Shown here in pieces: positions 5,184 through 49,017 of a stretch of 64,000 nucleotides of DNA (its first letter is position 1; each line of letters opens with the position of its first letter). The translations under genes and the position numbers were made by a program. Source of the stretch: Capsulimonadaceae bacterium (GTDB lineage Bacteria; Armatimonadota; Armatimonadia; Armatimonadales; Capsulimonadaceae); the NCBI GenBank assembly GCA_965246745.1, contig OZ251980.1:1444280-1508279 (forward strand). The letters run 5' to 3'. The notes below the pieces were generated by a model. The model had not been told where the DNA came from, did not search any database, and worked only from the letters and a program-made list of their open reading frames with translations.

Positions 5184-6297
5184 AAAGGCTCCTCCCCAGC
5201 GCGGACACGGCGCACGCGGCGCGGCTGCTCGGATGCGACAGCACAAACGGAATGCCGCTGTTGACCGATGCCGGGACAATTTTGCCGTCGTTCGGGATTT
5301 GCCAGTCGGCGGGCCGCCCCAGCGCCCGCGCGGCGTCGGCGGGCTGCAATTTATTGGACGGCGCGGCGCGGTTCAAGCCCACCTGCACGGTGTTCAGCGG
5401 GACGGCATCCAGCCACAGCCGGGTCGCCGCCAGCGTCGCCAGGTCAAACAAATTGGCCGTCAGCAGCACGCAGTCGGCTTCTTCGAGCACGCGGCGGGAC
5501 GCTTCGCTCAGCGCCGCCGGCAGGTCCACGACAATGTGGGCGTATTCGCCGCGCAGCAGCGCCAGCAGCCGGTCCAAAAGCGCAAGCGTCAGGCCGTCGG
5601 CGTCCATCGGGGCCGCCGCGCCGGCCAGCAGCGCGAGGCCGCACGCATGCCGCTCGGCGTGGTCTTCCACCAGCGCGGCGTCCCAGTCCGCCGGGTCTGC
5701 CAGCGCCCAGTCCGCGAGAGTTCGGCGCGGAAAAAGGTTCAGCAGCAGGGCGGCGTCCGCAAACTGCGTGTGCAGGTCCAAAAGCACGGTCCGCTCGCCG
5801 GTTTCCGCCGCCAGCGCCGCCGCGAGGTTCACGGCCAGGGTGGTGGTGCCGACCCCGCCTTTCGCGCTCGTGACGGCGACAATCCGGCCCGGCGGCCGGG
5901 CGTCGGCGGCGGGCGTGCTGCGCCGGTGCAGGTCGGCATACACCGACTGCACGGCGGCTTGCAGCGCGGCCGCCCCGGCGGTGCGGCAGACGACTTCCCG
6001 CGCTCCCGCCCGCATCGCCCGCCGCAGGGCGGCGTCGGAGTCGTCGGCGCAGACCAAAATCGTTTCCAGCGGCAGGCCCGCCGCCGAAAGCGCCGCCGCC
6101 GCCGCAAAGCCGCCGTCCGGCGGCAGGTCGTCGGCAATCAAGACCACTTCTGGCCGCAGCACACGCGCCAGCCGCAGGCACTCGCCGCCGTCGCGGGCCG
6201 CGCCGAGGATTTCGATCTGCGCGTCCGAAGACAGCGCGGCTTGAAGCTGATCGCGGCGCTCGGGATGAGGGTCGGCGAGAAGTGTATGGATTGGCAT
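5167..6297 (-). CDS. cpaE: CpaE/TadZ: N-terminal receiver-like domain fused to a ParA/MinD-type ATPase
   Basis: 376 aa. The deviant Walker A is VTSAKGGVGTTTLAVNLAAALA, and the N-terminal region has a CheY-like fold pattern. Confidence 0.8.
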   Translation of the reverse strand: MPIHTLLADPHPERRDQLQAALSSDAQIEILGAARDGGECLRLARVLRPEVVLIADDLPPDGGFAAAAALSAAGLPLETILVCADDSDAALRRAMRAGAREVVCRTAGAAALQAAVQSVYADLHRRSTPAADARPPGRIVAVTSAKGGVGTTTLAVNLAAALAAETGERTVLLDLHTQFADAALLLNLFPRRTLADWALADPADWDAALVEDHAERHACGLALLAGAAAPMDADGLTLALLDRLLALLRGEYAHIVVDLPAALSEASRRVLEEADCVLLTANLFDLATLAATRLWLDAVPLNTVQVGLNRAAPSNKLQPADAARALGRPADWQIPNDGKIVPASVNSGIPFVLSHPSSRAACAVSALGRSLYAARR

Positions 6298-6314
6298 GGC
6301 GGTGTCCCACTATT

Positions 6315-9094: not shown

Positions 9095-10228
9095 CTACTT
9101 GGTCAAATGGGCCGGGGCCTGCGCTCCGGCCTCGGCGCACGCGCCCTGAGTTGCCGACGGCACGACCAGGCTGAGAAAGCGGCCGTAAACAATGGCGTTG
9201 CTCGGCGCGGGATCGGTGGCCGGCTGGCTGATGAAAAATGTTGCAAAGGCAATAATCGAGACGTTTCCGGGCCGGTTTTTGACGGCCTGACTGATCACGG
9301 GAAGCAGCAGCAGGTGGCCGTCGGAAAGCGGCCGGCCGCCATTGAACCAGGCATCGTAGGTCGCGAAGCCGTGCGTAAACTGCGTGCTGCTCGGCGCAAG
9401 CCGGGCCGCAATCCCGGCGCGTGTCAGCGCCGTGCTGTCATAAGCCAGCGCCGTCGTCGCCAGCGTCTGGCCCGCCGACAGCGGCTGGTCCGAAAGATGC
9501 CCGATGGTGCTTTGGTAGCCCGCTCCCATGCCGCTGGTCATCAGCGGATCAAAGCTGCCTTTGGTCGCCAGATTGCCGTTTTGGTCCCACAGATTAAGCC
9601 GCAGCATGACCTGGCTGCCGGCCGGCTGGTACGCGCCCGGCGTCAGCGTTTTCGTTCCATTCAAAAGCGCGGCGACAAGCGCCACGGCAGGGTCGGCGCT
9701 GGCCGGGTCGTCGCCGATCAGCCCGAACGGCGCGACCGGCAGGCCCGGCGGCAGGCCGCAGGCGGCGGGAGCCGACGCAGTGGCGGACGCCGAGACCGTC
9801 ACAGTGTTCGCGGAGCCGTCCGCGCCGTGCGGCGTGAACCCGACGGCCGGGGCAAACGACAGCGGGGCGTTGACGGTGCCGCTGACGGTGACGGCTCCGC
9901 TCGGGTCGGCGCTGACGGCGGTGGTTGTGAACGCCGTTCCGGCGGCGTTGTTGGCGGCGGCGTTGTTGGCGGCGACCACGCCGGCGGCCGCCGCGCTCGG
10001 GGCGGCGGCTCCACCTGCGCCGGCCAGCGCGGCGGCATCGGCGACCGCCTGCGCCCGCTGCCGGGCCAGCCCCATCAAATTCAGGTCAATCGCCAGCGCG
10101 GCGGCGGCCAGCAGGCCGGCCAGCAAGAAAGCGACCAGCGGCAGGGCCGCCCCGGTGCGCGGCGAATGTCGGAAGTGTGGGCGATAGAAGCATGGAATTG
10201 AAATCCCACGCCTAAAATTGTCGTCCAT
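9095..10228 (-). CDS. tadG: TadG-like putative pilus-associated protein (Flp pilus-assembly TadE/G-like N-terminus)
   Basis: The N-terminal TM segment and the motif AIDLNLMGLARQRAQAVADAAALAGA resemble TadE/G-like domains. The large C-terminal region has no clear family match. Confidence 0.55.
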   Translation of the reverse strand: MDDNFRRGISIPCFYRPHFRHSPRTGAALPLVAFLLAGLLAAAALAIDLNLMGLARQRAQAVADAAALAGAGGAAAPSAAAAGVVAANNAAANNAAGTAFTTTAVSADPSGAVTVSGTVNAPLSFAPAVGFTPHGADGSANTVTVSASATASAPAACGLPPGLPVAPFGLIGDDPASADPAVALVAALLNGTKTLTPGAYQPAGSQVMLRLNLWDQNGNLATKGSFDPLMTSGMGAGYQSTIGHLSDQPLSAGQTLATTALAYDSTALTRAGIAARLAPSSTQFTHGFATYDAWFNGGRPLSDGHLLLLPVISQAVKNRPGNVSIIAFATFFISQPATDPAPSNAIVYGRFLSLVVPSATQGACAEAGAQAPAHLTK

Positions 10229-10247: not shown

Positions 10248-10679
10248 TCACTCCCGCTGCATGACCAGCTTGGAAGTCAGCAGCCGCGTGCTGCCCGAGA
10301 AAACCAGCGTCGTCACCAGCGGGTGATTATATGCCGCCGTCGCCCGGACCAAGTTCCCGGCGGCGGCATCGTTGCCGCCGCCTGTGTCCCCGAGCGCTGT
10401 CCACGTCGCGCCGCCGTCGGCGCTTTTTTCCAGCACAATCGCGGCCGGCGATAAATGCAGGCCGGCGGCGGCATTCGCGCCGCGTATCGCGGCGTCTCCG
10501 GTCGTGCTGCCGGCGGCGGCCGCACGGGCGGCTTCCCGCGCGGCGGCCCCGACCTGCGCCCCGTCGCCGAGCAGCAGGCCGACTTCGACAATGCCGAACA
10601 GCAGCAGAAACAGCAGCGTGCTGATCAGCGCGAATTCGACCAGGGCCGCCCCTCGCTGCTGTTTTCGGGTGCGTTTCAT
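10248..10679 (-). CDS. tadE: TadE-like pseudopilin / Flp pilus assembly protein
   Basis: From the internal ATG at 10679 it reads MKRTRKQQRGAALVEFALISTLLFLLLFGIVEVG, which is the TadE-like N-terminal motif. Confidence 0.7.
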   Translation of the reverse strand: MKRTRKQQRGAALVEFALISTLLFLLLFGIVEVGLLLGDGAQVGAAAREAARAAAAGSTTGDAAIRGANAAAGLHLSPAAIVLEKSADGGATWTALGDTGGGNDAAAGNLVRATAAYNHPLVTTLVFSGSTRLLTSKLVMQRE

Positions 10680-26071: not shown

Positions 26072-28294
26072 CTACTGTTTCGCCGCAATCCGCACCAGGG
26101 TCACCGACTGCGGGGGCAGGGCCAGCGAGCGCTTCAGCGGGGACGGCGGCAGCGCCGACACGCGGGCGGGGGCATTCTCACCGGGATTGTCGGCGGTCAA
26201 GCGCCACATCTTTACCGGGCCGGACGGCGAAAAGCCCTGCACGGTCAGCGGCGCGGTGATGGTCGCTTTTGCGGTTTTGTTGACCAAAATCAGCGTCAAG
26301 TCGCCCGTGCGGCTGTCGGTGGCGGCGTAGCACGACAGCTTGCCGGGGTCGGCGCTTGCCGCCGCGCAGGCGACATCGCCGAAGCCGGCCCCCTGCCCGT
26401 CGGCATTGCGGTACAGCTTAAACACTAAATAGGCCGGCGAGTTTTTGGGCGGGTACGCCCAGTAGTTCGCCAAAAAGATGTTTTCGCGCCCGAACACGCC
26501 CAGCGCGTCGGCGGCGGCGAGGCCGCCGCTGATGTCTTTTTCGCCGCCGAAGCTCCATTCGGTCAGCCCGATCCGTGTGCCGGGGTAGCCTGCCGCGATC
26601 CAGGTTTTGAGCCGGGGGATCAGCATGACCGGCTCGCCGATCCAGCTTTCATCGGGGTACGCCGGGTCGAACAAAGCGCGGGTGGAGCGCTCCCGCAAGG
26701 CCCGCGTCGCTTTGTCCGCCTGCCCGCCGTAGACCCCGCTGCCCTGCGGGTAGAAATGGACATCCAAAACATCGAGCGTGCGGGTCTTGGCGCGAAGGTC
26801 GTGGGCATGGACTTGTTTCAGAAACCACAGCAGAAACGGGTCGCCGCCGTGGGCTTTGCGGTCGGCAAACGAATGGAAATTGTCGTCGCCCCGGTCGAGC
26901 GCCGAATAATTGTACCCGGTCCAGCCCCACGACACCGGCCCGGTGACCAATGCCGCCGGGTCCACGGCTTTGGTCGCCGAAGCATAGTCCAAGTAATTAT
27001 GCAGGACATCGCCGTAGCCCATGCGGGCGGGGTGAACATCGGTGTGGGTCACATCCCACAAATCCGGCTCGTTGTCCATGGCGTAAAACTGCACGCCGCC
27101 GCTGCCCGCCGGGCCGAACGTCTTTTTCAGGTGCGCGATCCATTCGTCCTGGTAAACAATCTCGCCGGCCGCCGGGGGGGCGTCCGAAAACGGCGCGTTT
27201 TTGCGGGCGACGGACTGTACACTGGTGCGGCGGCGGTTTTCGGACGGATTGTACCCGGCGGTTTTGTCGGACGGCGGCACCCCGGCGGACTGGTGGCTGT
27301 TGTCGCTGTCGCGGGCCACCCAGCCCAGGGTCGGCACGGTCAGCAGCGTCGCCGCGCCCCGCGCCTTGTTGCCCTGCACAAACCTGTCGGCGGCGGACGA
27401 CGGCCCCGGCGGGACGGACGCGTCGGACGCGTACCGATTGCGGAATTCCCAGTCCCGCGCGGCGTTGTCGGCGTTGCCCTGCACCCAGTTGTAGCGCGAC
27501 TTGTCGTTGCCGCCCCAGCGGTTCACGGTGAGCTTCAGGTCGGCCAGGTAATCATCGGGCGCAAACGCCATGCCGTAAATATAGGGCGAGATCGGGTGCC
27601 GGCCCGCGCCGGCATTGACCGTGACGGCCACAGTCGCCGCCGTCGGCGCAGGCGGAATGGAGAAATCGGGCAGCAGCGAAATCTCGTCGAGAACCACCGG
27701 CTCGGACGCATCCTGCCGGGGCTGAAAAACAAGGCCGGTGATGGCCTCGCCGCCGCGCGGAGCGCCGAGGTCGGCCAGCGGCACCCGGAGCCGGTGCCAG
27801 CCGGGCAGATGATTGGGGTCCGGGGACAGATACCGGCTCATCGGCACGGCGTCGCCGAACTTGCCGCTGCTGTCTACCAAACACACTTTCGCGGTCGTGT
27901 CGCCCGCAACAAACGCCGTCAGGGCCGCGTACCCGCCGGTGCTGTACGGGTCATGGTGCAGGTACACCCCCCGGTTGCCGCCGGGCGAGAGCGAAATCGC
28001 AAACTGCCCCGTGTGGACAGGCGAAGTGGATTTCAGCGTGCGCGTTCCCCACGACCAGTCCTGCCAACCGTCGCCAAGCGCATCGGTGTAAACGGTCAGC
28101 GGCCCGTCGGCCCGCTCCGCCGGCAGCGCCGCCGCCATCGCCCCCTGCCCCTTGACCGCGTGATACAGCTGCGCCGCCGCCTGGTGCCAGCGCCCGTGCC
28201 CGCCGACCGCCCGCCGCCCCACCTCGGCCCCGGTTCCCAGCACCAGCACGCCGAGACCCAAACCCACCGCTACCGAAAACCGTTTTGCTGCCAT
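26072..28294 (-). CDS. Secreted glycoside hydrolase, GH-A clan (GH44-like) with additional beta-rich domains
   Basis: 740 aa with a signal peptide. It has a putative acid/base motif (YAMDNEPDLW) and a nucleophile motif (IGLTEWSFGG). Confidence 0.55.
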   Translation of the reverse strand: MAAKRFSVAVGLGLGVLVLGTGAEVGRRAVGGHGRWHQAAAQLYHAVKGQGAMAAALPAERADGPLTVYTDALGDGWQDWSWGTRTLKSTSPVHTGQFAISLSPGGNRGVYLHHDPYSTGGYAALTAFVAGDTTAKVCLVDSSGKFGDAVPMSRYLSPDPNHLPGWHRLRVPLADLGAPRGGEAITGLVFQPRQDASEPVVLDEISLLPDFSIPPAPTAATVAVTVNAGAGRHPISPYIYGMAFAPDDYLADLKLTVNRWGGNDKSRYNWVQGNADNAARDWEFRNRYASDASVPPGPSSAADRFVQGNKARGAATLLTVPTLGWVARDSDNSHQSAGVPPSDKTAGYNPSENRRRTSVQSVARKNAPFSDAPPAAGEIVYQDEWIAHLKKTFGPAGSGGVQFYAMDNEPDLWDVTHTDVHPARMGYGDVLHNYLDYASATKAVDPAALVTGPVSWGWTGYNYSALDRGDDNFHSFADRKAHGGDPFLLWFLKQVHAHDLRAKTRTLDVLDVHFYPQGSGVYGGQADKATRALRERSTRALFDPAYPDESWIGEPVMLIPRLKTWIAAGYPGTRIGLTEWSFGGEKDISGGLAAADALGVFGRENIFLANYWAYPPKNSPAYLVFKLYRNADGQGAGFGDVACAAASADPGKLSCYAATDSRTGDLTLILVNKTAKATITAPLTVQGFSPSGPVKMWRLTADNPGENAPARVSALPPSPLKRSLALPPQSVTLVRIAAKQ

Positions 28295-28488
28295 ACAGGC
28301 ATTTTACCACGACTCGCGCCGAAGTCGCACACGCTAAAAGACAGACTACGGCGTTTTTGGAGGCGGAAAGAGGCGTGTCTGCGCGGCAGCGACCGGGTAT
28401 CGGCCAGCGATTTGCAAAGCGCGGCGCTCCAACAGCCGGTCCGGGGCATTCAAGCCGAGGAGGCGAGAGGTCACTTCACCGATTTCGG

Positions 28489-29127
28489 TCAGCGGCACAA
28501 TGACCATGCCGTTCGGCTCGTCCAAGTGAAAAGCTGATGCCATAAATCGCGGCGCGGCGAGTAAAAGCGCGTTAATGTGCTGGTTTGCACCGCCAAAGAG
28601 CCGAGGTCACTGCCTTTGCTGCGATTACAGGGAAGACAGGTGTACGCAAGATTGTCTTTTTGCGTCAAGCCGCCATGCTTTTCGCTGACGATGTGGTCAA
28701 CTTCGCTGCTGAACAGCATGTCGTCTTCGTGGAGAAGGCAGTATTCGCAGAGAAAGTCCGCCCGCGCGATGACAAGGCGGCGCAATTCCGCCCGGATATA
28801 AGAAGTGCTCATTTGCCGGCCAAAAATTGCCGTGCCCGGTACGGGAATTATAGGCCACAAGACACACAGACACAATACGATACGGTTCTGATCACTTTTA
28901 AGCCGAGGCACTACTCGCAGCCATACCCACAGGTACATTCCGCCGACAGCCATGACACAGGCGGCGACAAGCGGCGAAAACCGAGAGAAATACCACAAAC
29001 AAAAGACGGTTAGCAGCAGGCAAACGATTAGGTCAATGATCTGCGGTTGGCGGCGGGCTGTGAGCAGCAGTTGCTCTGCCTCCTCAGAAACGAGCCACGA
29101 GCCTTTGCGGGCGGACAGCGGCATCAT
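28489..29127 (-). CDS. HNH endonuclease with an N-terminal transmembrane region
   Basis: The C-terminal region CEYCLLHEDDMLFSSEVDHIVSEKHGGLTQKDNLAYTCLPCNRSKG has an HNH signature. The gene lies in the low-GC segment next to the attC array. Confidence 0.7.
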   Translation of the reverse strand: MMPLSARKGSWLVSEEAEQLLLTARRQPQIIDLIVCLLLTVFCLWYFSRFSPLVAACVMAVGGMYLWVWLRVVPRLKSDQNRIVLCLCVLWPIIPVPGTAIFGRQMSTSYIRAELRRLVIARADFLCEYCLLHEDDMLFSSEVDHIVSEKHGGLTQKDNLAYTCLPCNRSKGSDLGSLAVQTSTLTRFYSPRRDLWHQLFTWTSRTAWSLCR

Positions 29128-29175
29128 TATCTCGGCTCCATCAAGCTGCTTTGTCCTTAACAGGCGTTCCGTCCA

Positions 29176-29278
29176 GCGGCCTAACGGCCAAGCTCACCTG
29201 CGACACCGCAAGCAACCGAAACGGCTGACGACGAAACAACGGCGCGGTGGCGTCGGCTGCAGCGCATTGTTAGGCCGC
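29176..29278. mobile_element. Integron attC site 1
   Basis: The inverse core (GCCTAAC) is at 29179-29185 and the core (GTTAGGC) at 29269-29275. Both sit within the ~103 bp imperfect palindrome GCGGCCTAACGG...GCATTGTTAGGCCGC. Confidence 0.8.
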
Positions 29279-29285
29279 AGACAGG

Positions 29286-29558
29286 TCAGCGCCGGTTACG
29301 CTGACGAGCGGTGGCATAACAGCCCGCGCAAAGATAGGTGATCTGTGCAAATGCTTCTGTCTCATCATCCCATTCTCCTCCTGCCGCAAGCAAACGTCTG
29401 TCGCATTCCCCACACCAGGCATCCGGGCAGGGATCATCACCTGTATCGTCTGCGTGGAAGAAGCCTAGCCCAACACCCCGGACTAGATGCTTACAGACAA
29501 AGGTAACATAGCTTTCCCCATGAACGGGGCAGATTACTAGCTTGGTTTTGTCACTCAT
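29286..29558 (-). CDS. Cys/His-rich small cassette protein, hypothetical
   Basis: 90 aa with CPVH, CKH and CPDAWCGEC...CAGC motifs. It is followed at its 3' end by attC-1. Confidence 0.5.
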   Translation of the reverse strand: MSDKTKLVICPVHGESYVTFVCKHLVRGVGLGFFHADDTGDDPCPDAWCGECDRRLLAAGGEWDDETEAFAQITYLCAGCYATARQRNRR

Positions 29559-29595
29559 CTTTGCAACGTTCCGCCGACTGCGATGGCTATGTTCT

Positions 29596-29699
29596 GCGGC
29601 CTAACGGCAGCGCTCACCGGCGACACCTGACTGCACAGCCTTCCGACCTTGCAGAGCAAAGAGACAGGTGGCGTCGGCTGCAACGCATTGTTAGGCCGC
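29596..29699. mobile_element. Integron attC site 2
   Basis: It reads GCGGCCTAACGGCAG...GCATTGTTAGGCCGC and overlaps the stop of the ankyrin gene. Confidence 0.8.
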
Positions 29700-30014
29700 A
29701 CCATGTTCGGCGAACGCCAATAATACCTCTTGATGAAGTAAACCGCGCGTCAAATCTTGTGCTAATTCCTGCGCTAACTCTTGTGCTGTTTTACCAAAAA
29801 GATCTCGTGCTGTCGTGTCCGCCCCAAACTCAAGCAATAAACGTACTAAGTTAGCCTGTCCCGTGTAAGCTGCTGCCATTAAAGGAGTAGAACCAAGAGG
29901 GTCTTTGCCGTTGACATCTGCTCCCTGTTCCAGTAGCTGACGTACAATCTCTAGGTGGCCCATGTTGACTTCGTCATGGAGTTTAGATATAAGCCACTTT
30001 TCATTTGCTTCCAT
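29691..30014 (-). CDS. Ankyrin-repeat protein (cassette ORF)
   Basis: The ANK repeats are GADVNGKDPLGSTPLMAAAYTGQANLVRLLLEFGAD. Confidence 0.8.
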   Translation of the reverse strand: MEANEKWLISKLHDEVNMGHLEIVRQLLEQGADVNGKDPLGSTPLMAAAYTGQANLVRLLLEFGADTTARDLFGKTAQELAQELAQDLTRGLLHQEVLLAFAEHGAA

Positions 30015-30035
30015 TTTTTGTTCCGGCTACGCGGT

Positions 30036-30137
30036 GCGGCCTAACGGCAAAGCTCAGCCGCGCTACCGCCTGCACAGCCACCCAATCTCGCTGAGGCAAT
30101 GGCGGCGGTGGCGTCGGCTGCAGCGCATTGTTGGGCC
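30036..30137. mobile_element. Integron attC site 3 (core variant GTTGGGC)
   Basis: It reads GCGGCCTAACGGCAAAG...GCATTGTTGGGCCG, with the same architecture as sites 1 and 2. Confidence 0.75.
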
Positions 30138-30180
30138 GTGACGGTTCCGCTCTCGAACGCTAGAAGTCCACCGACAAACG

Positions 30181-30603
30181 CTAGAAGTCAACCGACAGAT
30201 GAAACTGAGCCTGATGTTCTTGGGCCAAGACCAGCACACGTTCTAAGTCTGATAAGTCAGCCCTTAGCCCCTCGAAAAACTCTGCCCTCTCCCAACCACT
30301 CGGTGCGCTGACAAGAGAATTCGGATGAGAACGCACCCGCTCCAAAAGCGGACGTATAACCTCTAGCCCCTCTTCTGGGGCAAACCATTCTTCGGCGGGC
30401 ACGACAATTTCGTCTGGGTCTTGTCCCGTCTGGTCGGAGATGAAGCCTCTCAATTCGTCTGCATTGGTGCTGTTGAAACGGAGCAAAGGCTCGAAGAGGC
30501 TGCCTTCCTCAAAAAGAACGTCTGCCAATGCCTTTCCCGAAACCTCTGTGACATCAAATCCGGCTACTTCTTTATTAAAAACGGGATAGACACTGACACC
30601 CAT
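30181..30603 (-). CDS. acidic hypothetical protein (cassette ORF)
   Basis: About 140 aa from MGVSVYPVFNKEV..., Asp/Glu-rich. Its 3' end abuts attC-3. Confidence 0.45.
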   Translation of the reverse strand: MGVSVYPVFNKEVAGFDVTEVSGKALADVLFEEGSLFEPLLRFNSTNADELRGFISDQTGQDPDEIVVPAEEWFAPEEGLEVIRPLLERVRSHPNSLVSAPSGWERAEFFEGLRADLSDLERVLVLAQEHQAQFHLSVDF

Positions 30604-30991
30604 GATTTCCTCCTCGCGTTTCCGACGACTGTGCGGCACTTTTTCATCGGCCCAACAAGTATTTTACCGCGTTATGCCGTTGGACGTTTGACGTAAAATA
30701 CGCGCATTTGGCGGCAATTACCGCACTTTTTTCGCGGCTTGCGGCATAACACCGCACAGAGCGCATTTTTACCGCACCGCAATGTGTCAGCCTCGATTAA
30801 TTGCTTCACTGCTGTTGTATCACAATTCTTTTCTTTCCTACCCATCCTCATTTTTTGCCCACGCCCCCGAGTCACTTCGTTCCGCAGCAGAAAGGCGGCC
30901 ACTCTGCCTGCGGCATTGCTGCGTCTCTGACGCTTCGCCCCAGGGCGTAGACCTTTAGTTCCACGCTCTGGGGTGCCCTCCAATGTGCCCC

Positions 30992-33010
30992 CTATTTCTT
31001 GTCGGCGACTGCCGCCAAGGGATAGGCGGCTGCGCCGGCGGGCGGGGCGGCGGTCGGCTCGGTTTCGGCGAGGGCGTCGGCGATGGCTTGGAGGGCCTGC
31101 GGGTTCGACGCCAGGGCGTTGGCGATGGCGTCGGCCTGCGCGGGGCTGGTGCCGCTTTGGCCGGTCATCTTTTCAATCGCGGGCGTCAGAAGCCGCCCGA
31201 GATTGCCCAAGAGCGTGTCCACTTGGGACGCCCCGCTTGGAGAATGGCCGTTGCCGTTGCTGCCATCGGCGGGCGACGATGCGCCGCCGAGAAAGCCTTC
31301 GGCCATGGCGCGGATGCCGAAGCCTTTGGCCATGTTGTCCATCATCTTTTGCGCGGTTTCCGGCGTGCCGTACAGGGTCATGTTGCCTTTCGATAAAAAC
31401 AGGCCGAGGGCGCGGGCGAATTCCTGCTGGACTTCCTTGTCGGCCTGAATTCTCAGTTTTTCGATTTCGAGGCGGATGCCCGCTTCGGCGAACTCCTGGC
31501 GGTTCGCGAGCTGGTTGCGCTCGACATCCACCCGCGCCTGCTCGACCCCGACATTCTCGCGGGCCACTTCCACCGGGACAAGCTGCTGCGCCCGCTCGCC
31601 CCGCGCGACCAGCTCGCGCGACTGGGCTTCCGCCTGGGCAAGCTGAAGGCGAGCCTCGGCCTGCTTGGCGGCGGCTTCCTGCTCGCCCTGGGCATTGGTG
31701 ACGCGGGTAAACGCCGACACCTGCGCTTCGGTCTGCTGGCGGATTTTGTCGCGCTCGATTTCCTGACGCGCCGCGATCAGCTTTTTGTTGGCGTCGCGCT
31801 CGGCTTCGGCGATCTGGGTCACGGTGATGACCTCTTGAGTCGCTTTCTCCTGCGCGGCCTGGGCGATGAGGGCTTTTTCTTCGGCCCGCGCCCGCTCGGC
31901 TTCCTGGTTGGCGACAGCGATCTGCTTGAGGCGCTCGGCCAGCGCCACGGCCTGGTCGCGCCCGACGGCTGCCGTTTGGAGTTCCTGCTCACGGGCGATG
32001 GTGGCGGTCCGCACGGCTTTTTCCTGACCGACGCGGGCGACTTCGACGGCCTGCTGGCGGCCGATTTCGGCGGTCTCGACCGCCTGCTGCTTTTCAATCT
32101 GCGACGTTTCCACGGCCCGCTGCTGGGCGATCACCGCCTGCTGCGATTCTTGGTCTTTGCCGGCCCGGATTTTGGCAATTTCGGTGCTTTGGTTCGCTTC
32201 TGCCTCAGCCTGGTTGCGCTCCAAGTTCAGAATATACTGACGCGTGGTCACGTCCTGGTTTTTGCGGGCCTGCTCCGCCGCCCGCTCCAAGTTGTTGCGC
32301 TCGACCATCGCCGCTGCCGTGATTTCGGTGATTTTGCGCTTGCCCTGGGCATCGAACACGTTGTTGTCGGACAGCTCCGACGGGTCGGTCTGGTCCAGCT
32401 CGGAGATCGTAACGCTTTCCAAAAGCAGGCCGTTTGCTTCGAGGTCCGACTTGACATGCTCTTTGACCCGCTCGGCAAACTCGTCGCGCTTGGTGTGAAT
32501 CTCAAACAAGTACATCTGCGACGCAATGGCCCGCAGCGCGGACACCAGTTTCTCGCTGACCAGGTTCTCGACATTTTCGGCGTTGACCGAGTTGTCGCCG
32601 AGCGACCGGGCGGCGTTCAGAATATGCTCCCGATCCGCTTGGACGCGAATATAAAACTGAGCCAGAATATCCGACCGCAAATTGTCGTGGGTAATCAGCG
32701 CATTCGGCCCGTGCGGGTTGACTCCGAGCTTCATCGTCCGCAGATTGACTTCGGTAATCCGGTGGAAGATCGGAATGACGAGCGCCCCGCCGTCGAGCAC
32801 GACCCGCGAGCCGCCCTGCCCGGTCATCACAAACGCCTGGTCCGCCGACGTTTTCTTATACAGCGAAGTCCAGACCGTGATGACCAGCCCCAGCAGAAAC
32901 AAAATCAGGCCGGCGACGCCGAGCACGGCCTTGCCGGCGAACCCAATCACCGGCAGAAACAGCGGGCCGACCATCAAGGCCGCACCGGCGATCAGCAAAG
33001 CAGCTCCCAT
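30992..33010 (-). CDS. Flotillin / SPFH (band 7) family protein, YqiK-like
   Basis: 672 aa. It has an N-terminal TM segment, an SPFH domain, and a long E/A/Q-rich coiled coil (…AEAEANQSTEIAKIRAGKDQESQQAVIAQQRAVETSQIEKQQAVETAEI…). GC is high, so it looks native. Confidence 0.85.
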   Translation of the reverse strand: MGAALLIAGAALMVGPLFLPVIGFAGKAVLGVAGLILFLLGLVITVWTSLYKKTSADQAFVMTGQGGSRVVLDGGALVIPIFHRITEVNLRTMKLGVNPHGPNALITHDNLRSDILAQFYIRVQADREHILNAARSLGDNSVNAENVENLVSEKLVSALRAIASQMYLFEIHTKRDEFAERVKEHVKSDLEANGLLLESVTISELDQTDPSELSDNNVFDAQGKRKITEITAAAMVERNNLERAAEQARKNQDVTTRQYILNLERNQAEAEANQSTEIAKIRAGKDQESQQAVIAQQRAVETSQIEKQQAVETAEIGRQQAVEVARVGQEKAVRTATIAREQELQTAAVGRDQAVALAERLKQIAVANQEAERARAEEKALIAQAAQEKATQEVITVTQIAEAERDANKKLIAARQEIERDKIRQQTEAQVSAFTRVTNAQGEQEAAAKQAEARLQLAQAEAQSRELVARGERAQQLVPVEVARENVGVEQARVDVERNQLANRQEFAEAGIRLEIEKLRIQADKEVQQEFARALGLFLSKGNMTLYGTPETAQKMMDNMAKGFGIRAMAEGFLGGASSPADGSNGNGHSPSGASQVDTLLGNLGRLLTPAIEKMTGQSGTSPAQADAIANALASNPQALQAIADALAETEPTAAPPAGAAAYPLAAVADKK

Positions 33011-33720: not shown

Positions 33721-33784
33721 CTTTGCGCCCCTGTAGTTTCTCTGACCCGGCGGCCCGCGAAAAGTTGCACGGCTGTTAAAAAAA

Positions 33785-33911
33785 GCGAGGGAGTGAACTC
33801 CTCTCGCTAGTTATAGTCGTCCTTCGGACGAAAGACTGCAACCGTTTGGCTGCTTCTCGTCCGCAGGGCGACATTTTACAGCGAGAGGAGTTCACTTCCT
33901 CGCTTGCTCCC
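33785..33911. repeat. ~125 bp structured repeat, copy A (terminal inverted repeats gcgagggagtgaactcctctcgct / agcgagaggagttcacttcctcgc; internal cgtccTTCGgacg hairpin)
   Basis: Read directly from the sequence. It is homologous to the copy at 41531-41655. Confidence 0.7.
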
Positions 33912-34390
33912 TCTTGCCCCGTGGTTGTGTTTCCCTACGACCTGCCGCGCCGCCCGGAGCCGAATCGATTCGTCGCTGCGTTTCCCGGCGAGACTGTGCT
34001 GCAATTCCGCCACCATGTTGTCCAGCTTAACCGCCTGCCGTGGCGTAGATTTATCCGCCAGGAAAACCCGGTGGCAAGCGCACTCATGGCGAAGATGAAG
34101 CAGTACGAACGCGCCATTGAGCAGTTTATGCCGACAGAAAGAACATCGTGGAAATCCTGACCGACTGGGAATGTAAGGGTATCGCACAAGGCATCGTGGA
34201 GGGCATCTCCCAGGGTTTGACGCAGGGCAAAGAAGCGCTGGTCGTTCCCCTGCTCCGCCGCCGCCTCGGCCCCGACACTCTCACCGCCCGCCTCGACACC
34301 CTCACCGCCGCCCATCTCGACGACCTCGGCGAAGCGTTGTTGGACTTCCGCACCGCCGCCGATTTACAGCAGTGGCTTGACCGGAATTAG
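33904..34390 (+). pseudogene. 3' remnant of an Rpn-family (PD-(D/E)XK) recombination-promoting nuclease / putative transposase gene (DUF4351 C-terminus), frameshifted
   Basis: Two adjoining frames encode ...AKMKQYERAIEQFMPTERTSWKS and EILTDWECKGIAQGIVEGISQGLTQGKEALVVPLL...LLDFRTAADLQQWLDRN. The QG-rich repeat followed by a helical tail is typical of DUF4351. A second 3' fragment (…LLDFRTIADLEQWLDQH) lies at about 35430-35497. Confidence 0.5.
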
Positions 34391-34405
34391 CGCAGCAGCG
34401 GCCTG

Positions 34406-34645
34406 TTAGACTTGATCATAAGCCGCCAAGAACTCGTCCCGCGAAATCCCGCTCTGGGTCAAAACCGTTCGCAGCGTAGACCCCTTAATCACTTTGTGGT
34501 TCGGCAATGTCAGTGGAGTCCTACTCCCATCGGCGTTCTCCCGCAGAAGCGCCAGATGATTGCCTTCCCGCACCAGCCGAAACCCCAGAAGCGCCAGCGC
34601 TTTGATCACCTTCTCACGCGGCGCATCCACCGGAAAGCGCGGCAT
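34406..34645 (-). CDS. hicA: HicA-family mRNA interferase toxin
   Basis: 79 aa. The segment KVIKALALLGFRLVREGNHLALLRENADGSRTPLTLPNHKVIKGSTLRTVL matches the YcfA/HicA fold pattern. Confidence 0.75.
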   Translation of the reverse strand: MPRFPVDAPREKVIKALALLGFRLVREGNHLALLRENADGSRTPLTLPNHKVIKGSTLRTVLTQSGISRDEFLAAYDQV

Positions 34646-34869
34646 CAGGCCGCCACCGCAAGCTCGGCGACAAAGGCTTCCAGCACCGGCGTTTCGGTTT
34701 CAATTACGTCCGGCCCGAACGTCTCCAAATGAAACGCAATCGCCGACTTCACATCCGCCAGCGCCTCCTCATACGTCTCGCCTTCCCCCACCACACCCCC
34801 CGCAATGCCGAGCGGATACGCCACATACCCGTCGCTGTGCCGCTCCACCACAATCTTAAACTGCCTCAC
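34645..34869 (-). CDS. hicB: HicB-family antitoxin (UPF0150)
   Basis: 74 aa. The segment FKIVVERHSDGYVAYPLGIAG…GETYEEALADVKSAIAFHLE matches the HicB N-terminal domain pattern. Confidence 0.75.
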   Translation of the reverse strand: MRQFKIVVERHSDGYVAYPLGIAGGVVGEGETYEEALADVKSAIAFHLETFGPDVIETETPVLEAFVAELAVAA

Positions 34870-35143
34870 GTTTCGCCTCCTCCAAGTGGCCCTTTCCTGC
34901 CCCGTAGGGCGTAGGGCATGCCCCTACCCTCCTCTCCGGGTCAAGAAGCTGCGTCAAGCCTGCCCGATACTCCGTAAGCACTTCCTCCGCCAGCCGGACC
35001 AGAGCCGGTGACGACTGCGTAAAAGATCGCTGCCAGCGCTGCTCGTCTTCCAGTTCTTCTAAAATCAGAGCCGCAATCGCATCTTGATCGGGTTCCGCCA
35101 GTTGCTGCACCTGAGCATAAGCGCGTTCTAATAATTGGGTCAT
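34856..35143 (-). CDS. hypothetical acidic helical protein (antitoxin-like)
   Basis: 95 aa with no motif recognised. It is overlapped by the hicB start. Confidence 0.3.
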   Translation of the reverse strand: MTQLLERAYAQVQQLAEPDQDAIAALILEELEDEQRWQRSFTQSSPALVRLAEEVLTEYRAGLTQLLDPERRVGACPTPYGAGKGHLEEAKREAV

Positions 35144-35181
35144 CTCAAAGCCTCACAATATCTCATCTGCGGCAGGTTCCC

Positions 35182-35340
35182 CTATTCAATCCGGTCTGCC
35201 GGCACCCGCAGGGCAAGCACCTGGGCGCGAACCACGGACTCCGACCGCCTCTGACCATAGGCAAGCCCCCTCGGCAATTCAGGAACTTCACTCAGCCACC
35301 GGCCATCTTCTTCTTGTTCGACTTCAATGGAAAGCGGCAC
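35182..35340 (-). CDS. small HicB-like (UPF0150) ORF that is not in the ORF track (under 60 aa, GTG start)
   Basis: Reverse-complement translation gives MPLSIEVEQEEDGRWLSEVPELPRGLAYGQRRSESVVRAQVLALRVPADRIE. This matches the HicB N-terminal consensus (IE.E.EEDGRW.AEVPELPGC.A.G.T.EEA...). Confidence 0.45.
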   Translation of the reverse strand: MPLSIEVEQEEDGRWLSEVPELPRGLAYGQRRSESVVRAQVLALRVPADRIE

Positions 35341-35593
35341 AATTTCACCTCACAGACAAGATAACGACATGATACCCGGTCTCTTCTTGGTCTTGATGAC
35401 AAGAAAGCGAATGCCAGACGCCCCAGTGCCATCGCTCACCGCCCTTCTCGACTTCCGCACCATTGCCGATTTAGAACAGTGGCTTGACCAGCATTAGCGG
35501 GGAGTAATCGAGAGGCTTTGGTTAAGCTGGCCCACCCGTGTCGGTGTAGCGCATTGTTCGACCGCAAATAGCGCTCGCAGCGTGTTTAGAGAG

Positions 35594-36328
35594 TTACTCT
35601 GGTTGCCTCTGTGTTATGAGAAAGTCATCGGTAAGCTCTTCAATGGGTAGATAGGCTCTTATGATAGCAAAAGCGTCTGGTATAGTAATCTGCCCATCTA
35701 TACGAAAATGCTTCGTGTAACCTGTTCCCTTAATTTTGTTCCCGTCTGCAAACAGACGCAGTTTGTCTTCGGGGCTAAAAGATATAGTAGCCCCGTCCAG
35801 ATGAATAAATGTAGTCGCGTCAGGTGTCAATCGACCATGTACATAAAAAACCTCTGGCGATTGTGCAATATCTTCCCAAGCTTCTAATTCAACTGCGCTA
35901 TCTTTCCGGTCTACTGCGATGTGAACGAGGAGATCTGCAACAAAACCAGTAGCGCTAAATCGCTCAGGCATAGGAACCTGAAACCTAGCCTTTATCAGTT
36001 TTTGCAGGCGTACCTCTTGTAGAGCACGCTCAAAAGGCACTCCATACAATGTCGCACGGCCCATGATTGGAGGAAAAGCCTTTACGCTTATAGCTGCCGC
36101 TTCCCATAGGTCAAGCTTTTGGACAAGAATATCTACGACTCTGTTGATATACGGGACAGGGTAGACCTGAAAATCGCTTCGATGCTTTAAGTGTAGCGAA
36201 TAATCTGCGGCCTGCTGCTGATGCACAATCCTTAGATCATTGGCCTGGACAAGTCCATCGTGATTTAGAAGTTCTGAAAGTGTGACAGCATTTTGTCTTC
36301 GCATTCTTTGTTGCTCTATCTTATTCAT
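35594..36328 (-). CDS. hypothetical protein (244 aa) with no recognisable domain; last gene of the AT-rich three-gene operon
   Basis: GC is about 42-45%, against a ~69% host. It shares the minus strand with the two ORFs upstream at short spacing. Confidence 0.5.
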   Translation of the reverse strand: MNKIEQQRMRRQNAVTLSELLNHDGLVQANDLRIVHQQQAADYSLHLKHRSDFQVYPVPYINRVVDILVQKLDLWEAAAISVKAFPPIMGRATLYGVPFERALQEVRLQKLIKARFQVPMPERFSATGFVADLLVHIAVDRKDSAVELEAWEDIAQSPEVFYVHGRLTPDATTFIHLDGATISFSPEDKLRLFADGNKIKGTGYTKHFRIDGQITIPDAFAIIRAYLPIEELTDDFLITQRQPE

Positions 36329-36439
36329 ATCGATTAGGATTTACACGGTTGAAGCCAAACCAAGAGATTTTAATGCCTTGTTCTCGCGATTCTACTCAAA
36401 GATCGCATGGAAACATCCAGCGAAGCAAGCATTGGAGTA

Positions 36440-36730
36440 TTAGACCCAGAAGAATAACTTTATGATAAGATCACAGAAGGCCTGTTTACGAGCCAGCTTG
36501 TCGGCTTCGATTTTTCTTAGGCGCTGACTTTCCTCTTCCGCAATGCGAGATTCTTCTCTAACCGCGTCTTTGTACGCCCGGTAAGCAGGATCGGCTGCTT
36601 CCCGTTCCTCCTCTTTTCTTATCTCAGCTTCCCGGTAGGCTATTTCACTTGCTCTCACGCTGTCGCGGATAGCGTTTTCAGTTAATGAAACGGCTTTCTT
36701 AATTGCCCATTTTGCAATAGGTCCTATCAT
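36440..36730 (-). CDS. small hypothetical protein (96 aa): amphipathic charged helix plus a C-terminal hydrophobic tail (FCDLIIKLFFWV)
   Basis: It is the middle gene of the AT-rich operon. Confidence 0.4.
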   Translation of the reverse strand: MIGPIAKWAIKKAVSLTENAIRDSVRASEIAYREAEIRKEEEREAADPAYRAYKDAVREESRIAEEESQRLRKIEADKLARKQAFCDLIIKLFFWV

Positions 36731-36757
36731 TAGCAGGTCTCGCTTTCTATTGAAGCG

Positions 36758-37969
36758 TTAAGGTAGTGTCTGAGGTATGAGCAGAAATATATTTGCAGCC
36801 TGCCCTTTAGGGGCATTTTTAGGCCGAAGTTGTTGCCACTCGTTTAGGCTGATGCCTGTTTGTTGAAGTGCCGCAACTTCGTCCCGGTATGCTTCAAACC
36901 GCCTCATGTCCTCAATAACGCCTTCTGCCTTCGTGAGCAACTCCGGCAAAGTTTGGGCGTAATACTCTTGCTTCTTCACTCTATATTCTTTTATTTTCTT
37001 TCTTGTCCTGTTCACTGCATCCTTATTGGACGCTACTTCAATGTTCCAGTATGTAACCTTGGCAAAGGCGGAAAAGCCTGTCTGGGCCTGGGCCTGAGCT
37101 TGATTATTTTTGCTTGAGATAAGTATATTCTCAACCCTCTCCAATTCCGCTTGTTGTTTCTTGCAGATATCTGAGTCGGATGCCTTCACAGATGACATTT
37201 CAAGTCTTCGGACATCTTTTTCCAAAGAATCTTCAAGCCGCCATATCCTAGCCACGAGGTCTGTGCATTGAGATAAGTCTATACACCATAGATGATTTGT
37301 ATCGAAAGCTGTATATTTCTTCTTCAAGTAGGCATGCACAAGTGTTCTCATGGTTTCAGAATACTGCTCTAGCTTTGATGTAGCAAGAACCATTTCGCCT
37401 AGTTCTATATGGCATCTAATTTCGGCAGTATAAGCGAGGAACAATGTCGAAATCAGCTTGTCTGCAATCTCACTGCCGGCAGCGATCTGGGCATCGCATT
37501 CTGCCTCGAAATAATGCTGTGCCTCCAACATACGATTGACCGCGTGAGTTGCAGTAATTCGCTTTGTGTCCGGGCTTTGCGTCATCATTGCATCGTTCGC
37601 TTGCCGAATTGCGGCCACAAAGTTTCCATAGAAACTCAAATCAAGTTTTCGATCTATCTGGGTTAAGAGAGCATTTTGTTCGGAGATGGACGTTTCCAAA
37701 AGCTTGATGCGGTTGAGAATGATTGTAAAGCCCGTCACAGAAACACCAAGATTAAGCACACCTACGACATCGCCAAACTTCAACAATCGCGAGGCTGAAC
37801 TAAGCATCTGTCCTGGTGAGACCTGAGTAAAGTCAGTTTCGCGTAGCCAGGCAACAACTGATTTAGAGTCAACTTCACGAATGACACCGCCAACTCTCTC
37901 ATAGTTGCCATTGTCTAAGCCATTCGCAATCCAATCGGGTATCTGAAAAACTGCTTCAACTGTATTCAT
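36758..37969 (-). CDS. hypothetical protein (403 aa), mostly alpha-helical, with one N-proximal hydrophobic segment (VVGVLNLGVSVTGFTIIL); first gene of the AT-rich operon
   Basis: GC is about 42%. No family motif was recognised. Confidence 0.5.
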   Translation of the reverse strand: MNTVEAVFQIPDWIANGLDNGNYERVGGVIREVDSKSVVAWLRETDFTQVSPGQMLSSASRLLKFGDVVGVLNLGVSVTGFTIILNRIKLLETSISEQNALLTQIDRKLDLSFYGNFVAAIRQANDAMMTQSPDTKRITATHAVNRMLEAQHYFEAECDAQIAAGSEIADKLISTLFLAYTAEIRCHIELGEMVLATSKLEQYSETMRTLVHAYLKKKYTAFDTNHLWCIDLSQCTDLVARIWRLEDSLEKDVRRLEMSSVKASDSDICKKQQAELERVENILISSKNNQAQAQAQTGFSAFAKVTYWNIEVASNKDAVNRTRKKIKEYRVKKQEYYAQTLPELLTKAEGVIEDMRRFEAYRDEVAALQQTGISLNEWQQLRPKNAPKGQAANIFLLIPQTLP

Positions 37970-38187
37970 CTTATTCTCCTTGATCTACCTTACACCATTA
38001 ACACTACTGCCGCAGAATGAAAAGCGGAAACTCAAACCCGTTTTTCTGCCTTGATCTTCGCATACCGTTTCGCCGCCCGCTTGCTATTTTCCTGCAAACA
38101 TTTTCGCCACAAATCCTAAATCCTTGCCCGCGAAGGCGGCCACTCGGCGCTTCGCCCCACAGCGTAGAACTTCAGTTCCACGCCCCA

Positions 38188-38216
38188 TTGACAACCCTAT
38201 CGCTTCTTTGCGATAA
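38188..38216 (+). promoter_or_regulatory. sigma70-like promoter (TTGACA, 18 bp spacer, GATAAT) upstream of the XRE gene
   Basis: The sequence is ttgacaaccctatcgcttctttgcgataatg. Confidence 0.5.
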
Positions 38217-48567: not shown

Positions 48568-49017
48568 AACGGCATGTCCTTTGTATGCGAAAGCCCGGCA
48601 GAGTTTGTGCGAACGTCACCGTATTATACTGCACAAACCATGCCGAAGGCAAGAGCAGGCAGGCGGCGGAGCGAATAACCCGGTATCTTTACCGGAGAAA
48701 AGAGCGTTTCGGGCGGTTCCGGCGCAGAAAAGCCGGTATTTGTCGGGGTAACTGTTTAGCGCCCCCTGCCGATAATCTTGAATGTCTGACACGCCAATCG
48801 CTGCTCGACAAAGGCAAACCTGGGGAAACGCAGGGACGCAAAGCACAGGGCCTTCGCATGTAAACAATCACCGTGCATGGCAGCCTGGCCTCCGAAAGTG
48901 CGACAGCATGAATATACACGCAACGCGCCCGGTCCCCTTCTAGAAAGGACCGGGCGTTTTGGCGTCCGCGTCCGCATCGCCCTACAGCCCGGTAATCGCC
49001 GTGCCGATAACAACGGC

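Follow-up and report, generated by a model that had tools for sequence, protein, structure and literature searches.

The segment from 28.3 to 31.0 kb of the 64-kb stretch of DNA analysed here (the window) is very probably a chromosomal integron cassette array without an integrase of its own, that is, a CALIN (cluster of attC sites lacking an integron integrase), in a Capsulimonadaceae-like member of the Armatimonadota. The array consists of a leader, three complete cassettes, each with a promoterless open reading frame (ORF) and an attC site of ~98 nt, and a decayed terminal unit that has no attC. An abrupt drop in GC content near 28.3 kb, noted in the initial annotation, was confirmed: the GC fraction was 0.68-0.69 at 27.4-28.4 kb, 0.50-0.59 at 28.4-31.0 kb, and 0.65-0.67 beyond. 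The three attC sites, with their scores in the covariance model R1 described below, are as follows.

29179..29275, minus strand: attC1; 34.5 bits, E = 4e-7; crossover between 29185 and 29184
29599..29696, minus strand: attC2; 29.9 bits, E = 9.2e-6; crossover between 29605 and 29604
30039..30136, minus strand: attC3; 49.0 bits, E = 1.8e-11; crossover between 30045 and 30044

The sites coincide with three imperfect palindromes of about 103 bp with attC-type boxes, which had been reported at these places from the sequence alone. Including the GC clamp, the palindromes occupy 29177-29279, 29597-29700, and 30037-30140 (103-104 nt), and the sites measure 97-98 nt from R'' to R'. On the plus strand all three palindromes begin with GCGGCCTAACGG; two end with GCATTGTTAGGCCGC and the third with GCATTGTTGGGCCG. 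The R'' and R' boxes are inverted at the site ends, as GCCTAAC...GTTAGGC at two sites and GCCTAAC...GTTGGGC at the third. The best-preserved site is attC3, in which the top (minus) strand carries R'' GCCCAAC at 30136..30130 and R' GTTAGGC at 30045..30039. In attC2, the R'' box GCCTAAC (29696..29690) includes the TAA stop codon of an ankyrin ORF, so the proposed overlap of a palindrome with the ankyrin stop codon was correct; the same arrangement of a stop codon in R'' is seen in aac(6')-IIa. Start-to-start spacings are 420 and 440 nt, which places the three sites within 1 kb on one strand. The pattern GCCTAAC-N70-100-GTTRGGC gave five strand-hits, all at these three sites, against 0.03 expected from shuffled sequences, and the 28-nt 3' arm was present in exactly three copies in 64 kb, against 0 expected, all inside the array. 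Each site lies 3' of a minus-strand ORF. The gene-attC alternation described in the initial annotation therefore holds for three units, but not for the fourth, distal unit (28.3-29.18 kb), which has no attC.

Rfam contains no attC family, and we therefore built an independent covariance model, R1, for which the only input was three clinical class-1 attC sites (aadA2, aac(6')-IIa, and cmlA8), with the window sequence excluded. The sites were taken from the sequences 3' of annotated resistance cassettes in plasmid class-1 integrons, which were located by tblastn with a verified IntI; the query IntI came from locus L022 and was verified with TIGR02249 (471 bits against a cutoff of 265). All three are short sites that align cleanly; a MAFFT alignment of 11 diverse known attCs misaligned the 3' arms. 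R1 has the canonical structure of R box, spacer, and L box with two bulges. It was searched against the whole window and the plasmid loci after a shortened calibration, so its E-values are rough.

R1 matched all three window sites over model positions 1-60 and on the minus strand only. Held-out attCs were recovered at 50.1 bits (gcuF, E = 8.5e-12), 24.5 bits (an A. salmonicida cassette, E = 3.8e-4), 17.8 bits (OXA-246, E = 0.038), and 16.8 bits (dfrA27, E = 0.079), and the window sites, at 29.9-49.0 bits, scored above several of these bona fide attCs (OXA-246 and dfrA27). No other convincing match was found in the 64 kb, the next being a partial GC-rich hairpin (E = 0.01) followed by noise. 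The expectation that these sites score as attC was thus borne out by a model made from clinical sites, with full coverage and on one strand. Since the matches are confined to the minus strand, that strand is the attC top strand and the plus strand the recombinogenic bottom strand, in keeping with the minus-strand ORFs.

The R1 alignment of the window sites shows unpaired spacers of 5 nt and 6 nt and a paired L box. The structure was further analyzed in an alignment of 38 attCs of this type, from the window, Armatimonadota loci, and one locus labelled Acidobacteriota (L013). Standard pairs filled 91.6% of pair cells, against 24-47% when partners were slid by 1-3 columns; helices 2 and 3 were paired at 100% and 93%, and compensatory changes were present in 11 of 22 pairs (e.g., CAGCCG/CGGCTG, CACCGG/CCGGTG, and CACCTG/CAGGTG). 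The extrahelical bases that set attC polarity, which the initial annotation had suggested looking for, were also found: all 38 sites have the same two unpaired bases in the L box, G16 and A23 on the top strand (bottom strand: C and T), and these occupy the model positions where aadA2 and aac(6')-IIa have their bulges. Known attCs are ~57-141 nt long with a variable terminal structure, a range that includes the window sites, and sites with the same arms in other loci are 53-127 nt long with centres unrelated in sequence. Folding of the plus strand as single-stranded DNA gave -33.0 kcal/mol for attC3, -25.9 for attC2, and -23.3 for attC1 (z = -3.7, -3.0, and -1.2 against shuffles).

Neither an intI gene nor an intI pseudogene was detected in the 64 kb by tblastn with a verified IntI (best E = 3.4), and none was found by a hidden Markov model of seven IntIs run with --max on all 1218 six-frame fragments (best E = 0.8). 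This agrees with the earlier claim that the window has no intI, and the nearest possible intI therefore lies more than 28 kb to the left or more than 33 kb to the right. The adjacent intI with the IntI-specific insertion that marks a complete integron was thus absent from the window. A CALIN is defined as at least two attC sites within 4 kb on one strand with no intI nearby (Cury et al. 2016, PMC4889954). With three attC sites on one strand and no intI nearby, the array is a CALIN by this definition, as initially proposed.

The three complete cassettes and their ORFs are listed below, with a slash marking the crossover point in G/TT.

30655..30045, minus strand: cassette A, 611 bp, bounded by G/TT crossovers
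30603..30181, minus strand: ORF of cassette A, 140 aa, with a GGAGG ribosome-binding site 5' of the ATG at 30603
30044..29605, minus strand: cassette B, 440 bp, bounded by G/TT crossovers
30014..29691, minus strand: ORF of cassette B, ankyrin-repeat protein of 107 aa (Pfam Ank, E = 1.6e-14)
29604..29185, minus strand: cassette C, 420 bp, bounded by G/TT crossovers
29286..29558, minus strand: ORF of cassette C, 90 aa, Cys-rich

All cassette ORFs are co-oriented. The cassette A protein belongs to an orphan family of ~130-140 aa, with full-length matches in 189 representative clusters (E <= 1e-3) and no match in Pfam, NCBIfam, PADLOC, or PDB. For the cassette C ORF, Pfam and other family searches and PADLOC gave no family match, and PADLOC on the cassette proteins returned only generic ankyrin and HNH similarities. 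The 5' end of cassette A, TTGGGCC (30655..30649), complements exactly the R'' of the cassette's own attC3 (GGCCCAA); at that R'' position the other two window sites have no C. Such a match is the signature of a cassette that was once circularised at its own attC. A 21-nt tandem duplication at 30156-30197 (AACGCTAGAAGTC[C/A]ACCGACA, two copies) covers the stop codon of cassette A just upstream of attC3.

The distal unit extends from 29184 to ~28300 and contains a gene remnant and an ORF fused to it.

28346..28812, minus strand: frameshifted, cassette-derived HNH endonuclease gene (Pfam HNH, E = 1.2e-10), with a frame change near 28540
28813..29127, minus strand: hydrophobic (membrane) ORF of ~100 aa, fused in frame to the HNH remnant

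The two HNH frames jointly match one intact 152-aa HNH cassette gene found in related loci (L007 and L127), with 63% and 54% identity. Only the last ~10 codons are left of the small ORF that normally partners the HNH gene, fused behind the hydrophobic ORF. The hydrophobic ORF had no significant family match; it was probably a separate cassette, joined through a deletion that took its attC. The array is thus partly decaying, with a frameshifted HNH gene and a missing terminal attC.

At its other end the array had been described as abutting the flotillin gene. This was not the case: a non-coding leader region of 335 nt (30657-30991) separates cassette A from the flotillin stop codon.

30657..30890, minus strand: conserved non-coding leader, candidate attI and outward promoter, with 74-89% identical blocks in relatives
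30650..30656, minus strand: R-box junction G/TTGGGC, the start of cassette A, where leader homology stops exactly
30931..30966, no strand assigned: 36-nt core of a ~60-nt repeat element at the outer leader end, with a second copy at 38148-38183 (89% identity)

The conserved leader is ~230 nt long, and its homologous blocks were found in four related loci (L017, L128, L130, and L134). It contains the boxes GTTATGC, GCATAAC, and GTCCAAC, and GTTAYGC-type boxes are present in all leaders; homology to known attI sites was not found. On the minus strand the window leader ends in ...AATACTTG/TTGGGCC, and leader homology ends at G/TTRGRCCGC in five of five loci, whose junctions read as follows.

Window: ...GGTAAAATACTTG/TTGGGCC
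L130: ...GGTAAAATACTTG/TTGGGCC
L128: ...GGTAAAATACTTG/TTAGACC
L017: ...GTATAGTAACAAG/TTAGGCC
L134: ...GTATAGTACAGAG/TTGGGCC

The first ORFs after the leader, known for four of the loci, encode 140, 166, 185, and 113 aa and are mutually unrelated. No intI was found next to the leader in any of the five. The four related leaders conserve TGTGATATAAT, pointing into the cassettes, and the window leader has TGTGATACAAC at 30825..30814; within it, TGATACAAC at 30822..30814 is a mutated form of TGATATAAT in the relatives, and the -10 box TATAAT of the relatives has become TACAAC. A scan for the sigma-70 consensus found no promoter in 28.2-31.1 kb, and no terminator-like site was found on the minus strand between flotillin and the cassettes. 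We consider the chance slightly better than even that the leader is a candidate attI with a promoter; the alternative is that it is a relic.

In the four relatives the divergent neighbour of the leader is a gene for a ~270-aa protein, where the window has the flotillin 3' end.

L128 6015-6827: ~270-aa family gene
L017 ~5498-6298: ~270-aa family gene
L130 10001-10819: ~270-aa family gene
L134 1286-1459: truncated remnant of a ~270-aa family gene

The leader platform thus stands behind flotillin in the window and upstream of the ~270-aa gene (truncated in one case) in the other four loci, and it appears from these positions that the platform may be copied to new chromosomal sites. Further copies of the ~60-nt repeat element were found in L017, L128, L130, L134, and L035. 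For the ~270-aa family, whose N-terminus reads MPTTxGGP..., there are at least 383 homologues and no match in Pfam or NCBIfam; an ABC transporter usually follows the gene. Two of the matches, P0268 and P0287, come from the same 4.23-Mb chromosome as L017. We considered whether this gene could be a hidden recombinase and rejected the idea as unsupported, since it has no family match and occurs with the ABC transporter in genomes where leader and cassettes are absent; it is therefore regarded as an ordinary neighbour. In L128 the leader is followed by cassette-type genes of which the attC sites survive only as half-sites (9585-9632 and 10455-10480); the stretch from the leader to the thi operon thus has the look of an array that has eroded.

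The array is flanked by the following genes.

26072..28294, minus strand: GH44 glycoside hydrolase gene
30992..33010, minus strand: SPFH/flotillin gene, on the opposite flank

The flotillin is 87-93% identical to proteins of Armatimonadota metagenome-assembled genomes, one of them on the 3,956,925-bp chromosome of Capsulimonadaceae OZ255718.1, and the more distant named matches are from Capsulimonadaceae and Chthonomonadaceae; by these matches, the host can be assigned to a Capsulimonadaceae-like Armatimonadota. The window flotillin itself had no identical entry. The flotillin loci of three relatives (L033-L035) contain no attC, and the array is therefore not ancestral behind flotillin; downstream of flotillin these loci are not syntenic, and an empty site could not be identified.

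Over their full length the window attCs are closest (75-85%) to sites in the Armatimonadota loci L001, L007, L015, L017, and L024. The same chromosome OZ255718.1 carries a large array of them (L127, 3844372-3864830), with 33 attCs in 20 kb on one strand that continue past both ends of the locus, and its cassettes include BrnT toxin, Imm53, WapI, DUF4259, HNH, and ankyrin proteins. No integrase was found beside the related arrays or leaders in L127, L128, L129-L135, and L017. A scan of the genome collection with the 24-nt 3' arm gave 26 loci in many phyla, among them Armatimonadota, Acidobacteriota, Gamma-, Beta-, and Deltaproteobacteria, Pirellulales, Pseudanabaena, and Chthoniobacterales; in most of these loci a partner R'' box lay 61 or 96-106 nt upstream of the arm, with unrelated centres between the arms. 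Verified or IntI-like genes stood no more than 8 kb from the same arm in L008, L022, and L025, as well as in the metagenome loci L070 and L098; these loci belong to other phyla. The metagenome scan with the 24-nt arm gave 91 loci, three of them with IntI and none of these of the window attC subtype, and the scan with a 30-nt Armatimonadota-specific arm gave no match. Chromosomal attCs are reported to be conserved within a taxon and to resemble those of taxa sharing an environment (PMC8352920), and the distribution of the window attCs fits this pattern. Armatimonadota were absent from the integron literature that we searched.

By analogy with established integron biology, the plus (bottom) strand of each attC, when single-stranded, would fold into a hairpin in which the R-box stem is followed by an unpaired spacer, then by an L-box stem bearing extrahelical C and T, and by a terminal stem that varies. 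If an integron integrase were provided in trans, it would bind the folded strand and cleave it between G and TT, and cassettes could thereby be excised as circles or new ones inserted at the G/TT of the leader. Expression may come from read-through from the co-oriented flotillin gene or from the weakened leader promoter. The cassettes are drawn from the lineage's own cassette pool, since the same attC type fills large arrays of related genomes.

Several observations weigh against the array being a regular integron cassette array. Rfam searches at the gathering threshold and at E <= 10 gave nothing relevant. The fold of attC1 is not clearly better than those of its shuffles, and attC1 and attC2 each have two mismatches among the six L-stem pairs of the R1 alignment, which can be read as erosion; because of these mismatches and the weak fold of attC1, both sites may be poor recombination substrates. 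The terminal unit lacks its attC, and no integrase was found in the 10 kb to either side of the related leaders and arrays that were examined. That the palindromes are ordinary repeats of the REP (repetitive extragenic palindromic) or MITE (miniature inverted-repeat transposable element) type, or transcription terminators with no integron link, is nevertheless extremely improbable. They are GC-rich, imperfect, and intergenic, and there is no Rfam family in which to place them. Against this stand the match on one strand to a model of clinical attCs, the two conserved bulges, the absence of a T-tract at the palindromes, and the same arm adjoining verified IntI genes in other phyla. Nor are the copies dispersed as REP or MITE copies would be, which had been named as an outcome that would overturn the integron interpretation: in the window and in the related genomes the unit is confined to dense, co-oriented arrays with about one ORF per repeat. 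The repeat or terminator explanation is therefore largely refuted.

Given a CALIN, the question is how it came to be without an integrase. It is possible, and we propose this tentatively, that this is a split integron, in which a conserved leader of the type of attI with Pc (the cassette promoter) is never linked to intI, and the integrase is encoded at a distance or a non-IntI recombinase acts on canonical attCs; this is based on the five of five leaders without an integrase and on unrelated first cassettes joined at an identical G/TT. An unlikely alternative is a fossil of a complete integron, where the leader is an old attI with Pc, the adjacent intI was deleted, and the array is inert and eroding. 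Loss of intI is one of the listed routes to CALINs (Cury et al., PMC4889954), and the frameshifted HNH gene, the lost last attC, the L-box mismatches in attC1 and attC2, and the change in the -10 box are all signs of decay; yet there is no intI pseudogene in the 64 kb, all five leader loci are without intI, and unrelated first cassettes at the same G/TT need either integrase activity after divergence or five independent losses. A simple local deletion of intI is thus disfavoured by five intI-less platforms with different first cassettes. The cassettes could also have been inserted at a non-specific chromosomal site (attG, GWT) by an integrase encoded elsewhere. Such insertion was shown experimentally for IntI1 and yields small CALINs that are expressed near a resident promoter (bioRxiv 10.1101/2022.09.11.507474). 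The small size of the array, its co-oriented position just downstream of flotillin, and the three related flotillin loci without attC all accord with it, but rather than being random, the upstream junction coincides with the end of a leader that has homologues in four other genomes, and we regard this route as quite improbable. Because of that homology, the leader and the cassettes would have arrived or been duplicated as a module.

Beyond the array, one further trace of this attC type was found in the window.

35545..35571, minus strand: probable relic of a fourth attC, 3' arm only; TGTAGCGCATTGTTCGACCGC on the plus strand, 81% identical to the attC 3' arm

This half-site is probably what is left of a fourth attC, but the assignment is weak because the covariance model gives it no score. 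It stands at one edge of a second low-GC island (35500-38190, 44-50% GC), which has a ~60-nt element at the other edge (38122-38187; core shared with 30931-30966) and contains minus-strand ORFs at 35594-36328, 36440-36730, and 36758-37969 with no Pfam match. The syntenic slot of this island in L017 holds a leader, a cassette, and an attC instead. Between flotillin and the island, an intergenic inverted repeat at 33783-33905 (arms of 49 nt, 82% complementary; loop of 25 nt) lies upstream of the flotillin operon, and the stretch 34148-35500 is rich in toxin-antitoxin genes, with a HicA toxin gene at 34406-34645 on the minus strand and two paralogous small plus-strand genes with 86% identity between their 3' ends (34343-34392 and 35450-35499). 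A c-di-GMP-I riboswitch aptamer was found at 48803-48896 on the plus strand (Rfam RF01051, 62 bits against a gathering score of 35).

What is unusual here is the host; the element itself is of an ordinary kind. Its main value is as a confirmation and as an extension of host range, with canonical soil-type attC cassettes, large sedentary arrays included, in the Armatimonadota, a little-studied soil phylum. New in this analysis are the leader common to four related genomes and the decay of the array. The leader is a lead worth following, as a platform that is apparently used although it has no intI. Should the leader prove to be a functional attI with no intI linked to it, this would be an exception to the usual adjacency of intI and attI, and some of the elements that now go by the name of CALIN would be working capture platforms, served in trans, and not debris.

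Compared with published CALINs, the array is alike in having three attCs on the same strand in under 1 kb, no intI (gene or pseudogene) in the vicinity, a small size, and cassettes mostly of unknown function; it differs in being headed by a cross-genome leader resembling an attI/Pc platform, whereas typical descriptions of CALINs include no platform. With the attCs of class-1 cassettes (cmlA and the aadA or aac(6') type) the window sites share the architecture and the bulge positions. The segment from R'' through the spacer to L'' is nearly identical to that of attC(cmlA), the window top strand reading GCCTAAC-AATGCG-CTGCAGCCGAC and cmlA8 reading GCCCAAC-AAATCG-CTGCAGCCGAC, and the first extrahelical bottom-strand base is C as in cmlA, where aadA has G. 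Unlike the class-1 sites, which measure 60-70 nt and belong to a mobile integron, the window sites are chromosomal and measure 97-98 nt owing to a longer variable terminal stem.

Sedentary chromosomal integrons, such as the superintegrons of Vibrio and Xanthomonas, have a lineage-specific, homogeneous attC, and so does this lineage, with its large arrays in relatives (L127) and a cassette content of toxin-antitoxin, immunity-type, HNH, ankyrin, and orphan proteins. In contrast to them, no intI stands beside any platform or array fragment examined in this lineage, and the window array, with its three attCs, is a small satellite that lies at another locus. The leader resembles attI1, which in a real plasmid reads GATGTTACGCAGC...CCTAAAACAAAG/TTAGCC, in that it ends A-rich and then in G/TT, has GTTAYGC-type boxes upstream, and shows cross-genome homology that stops at the crossover. 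It differs from attI1 in having neither sequence homology to it nor an adjacent divergent intI, and is a candidate recombination site.

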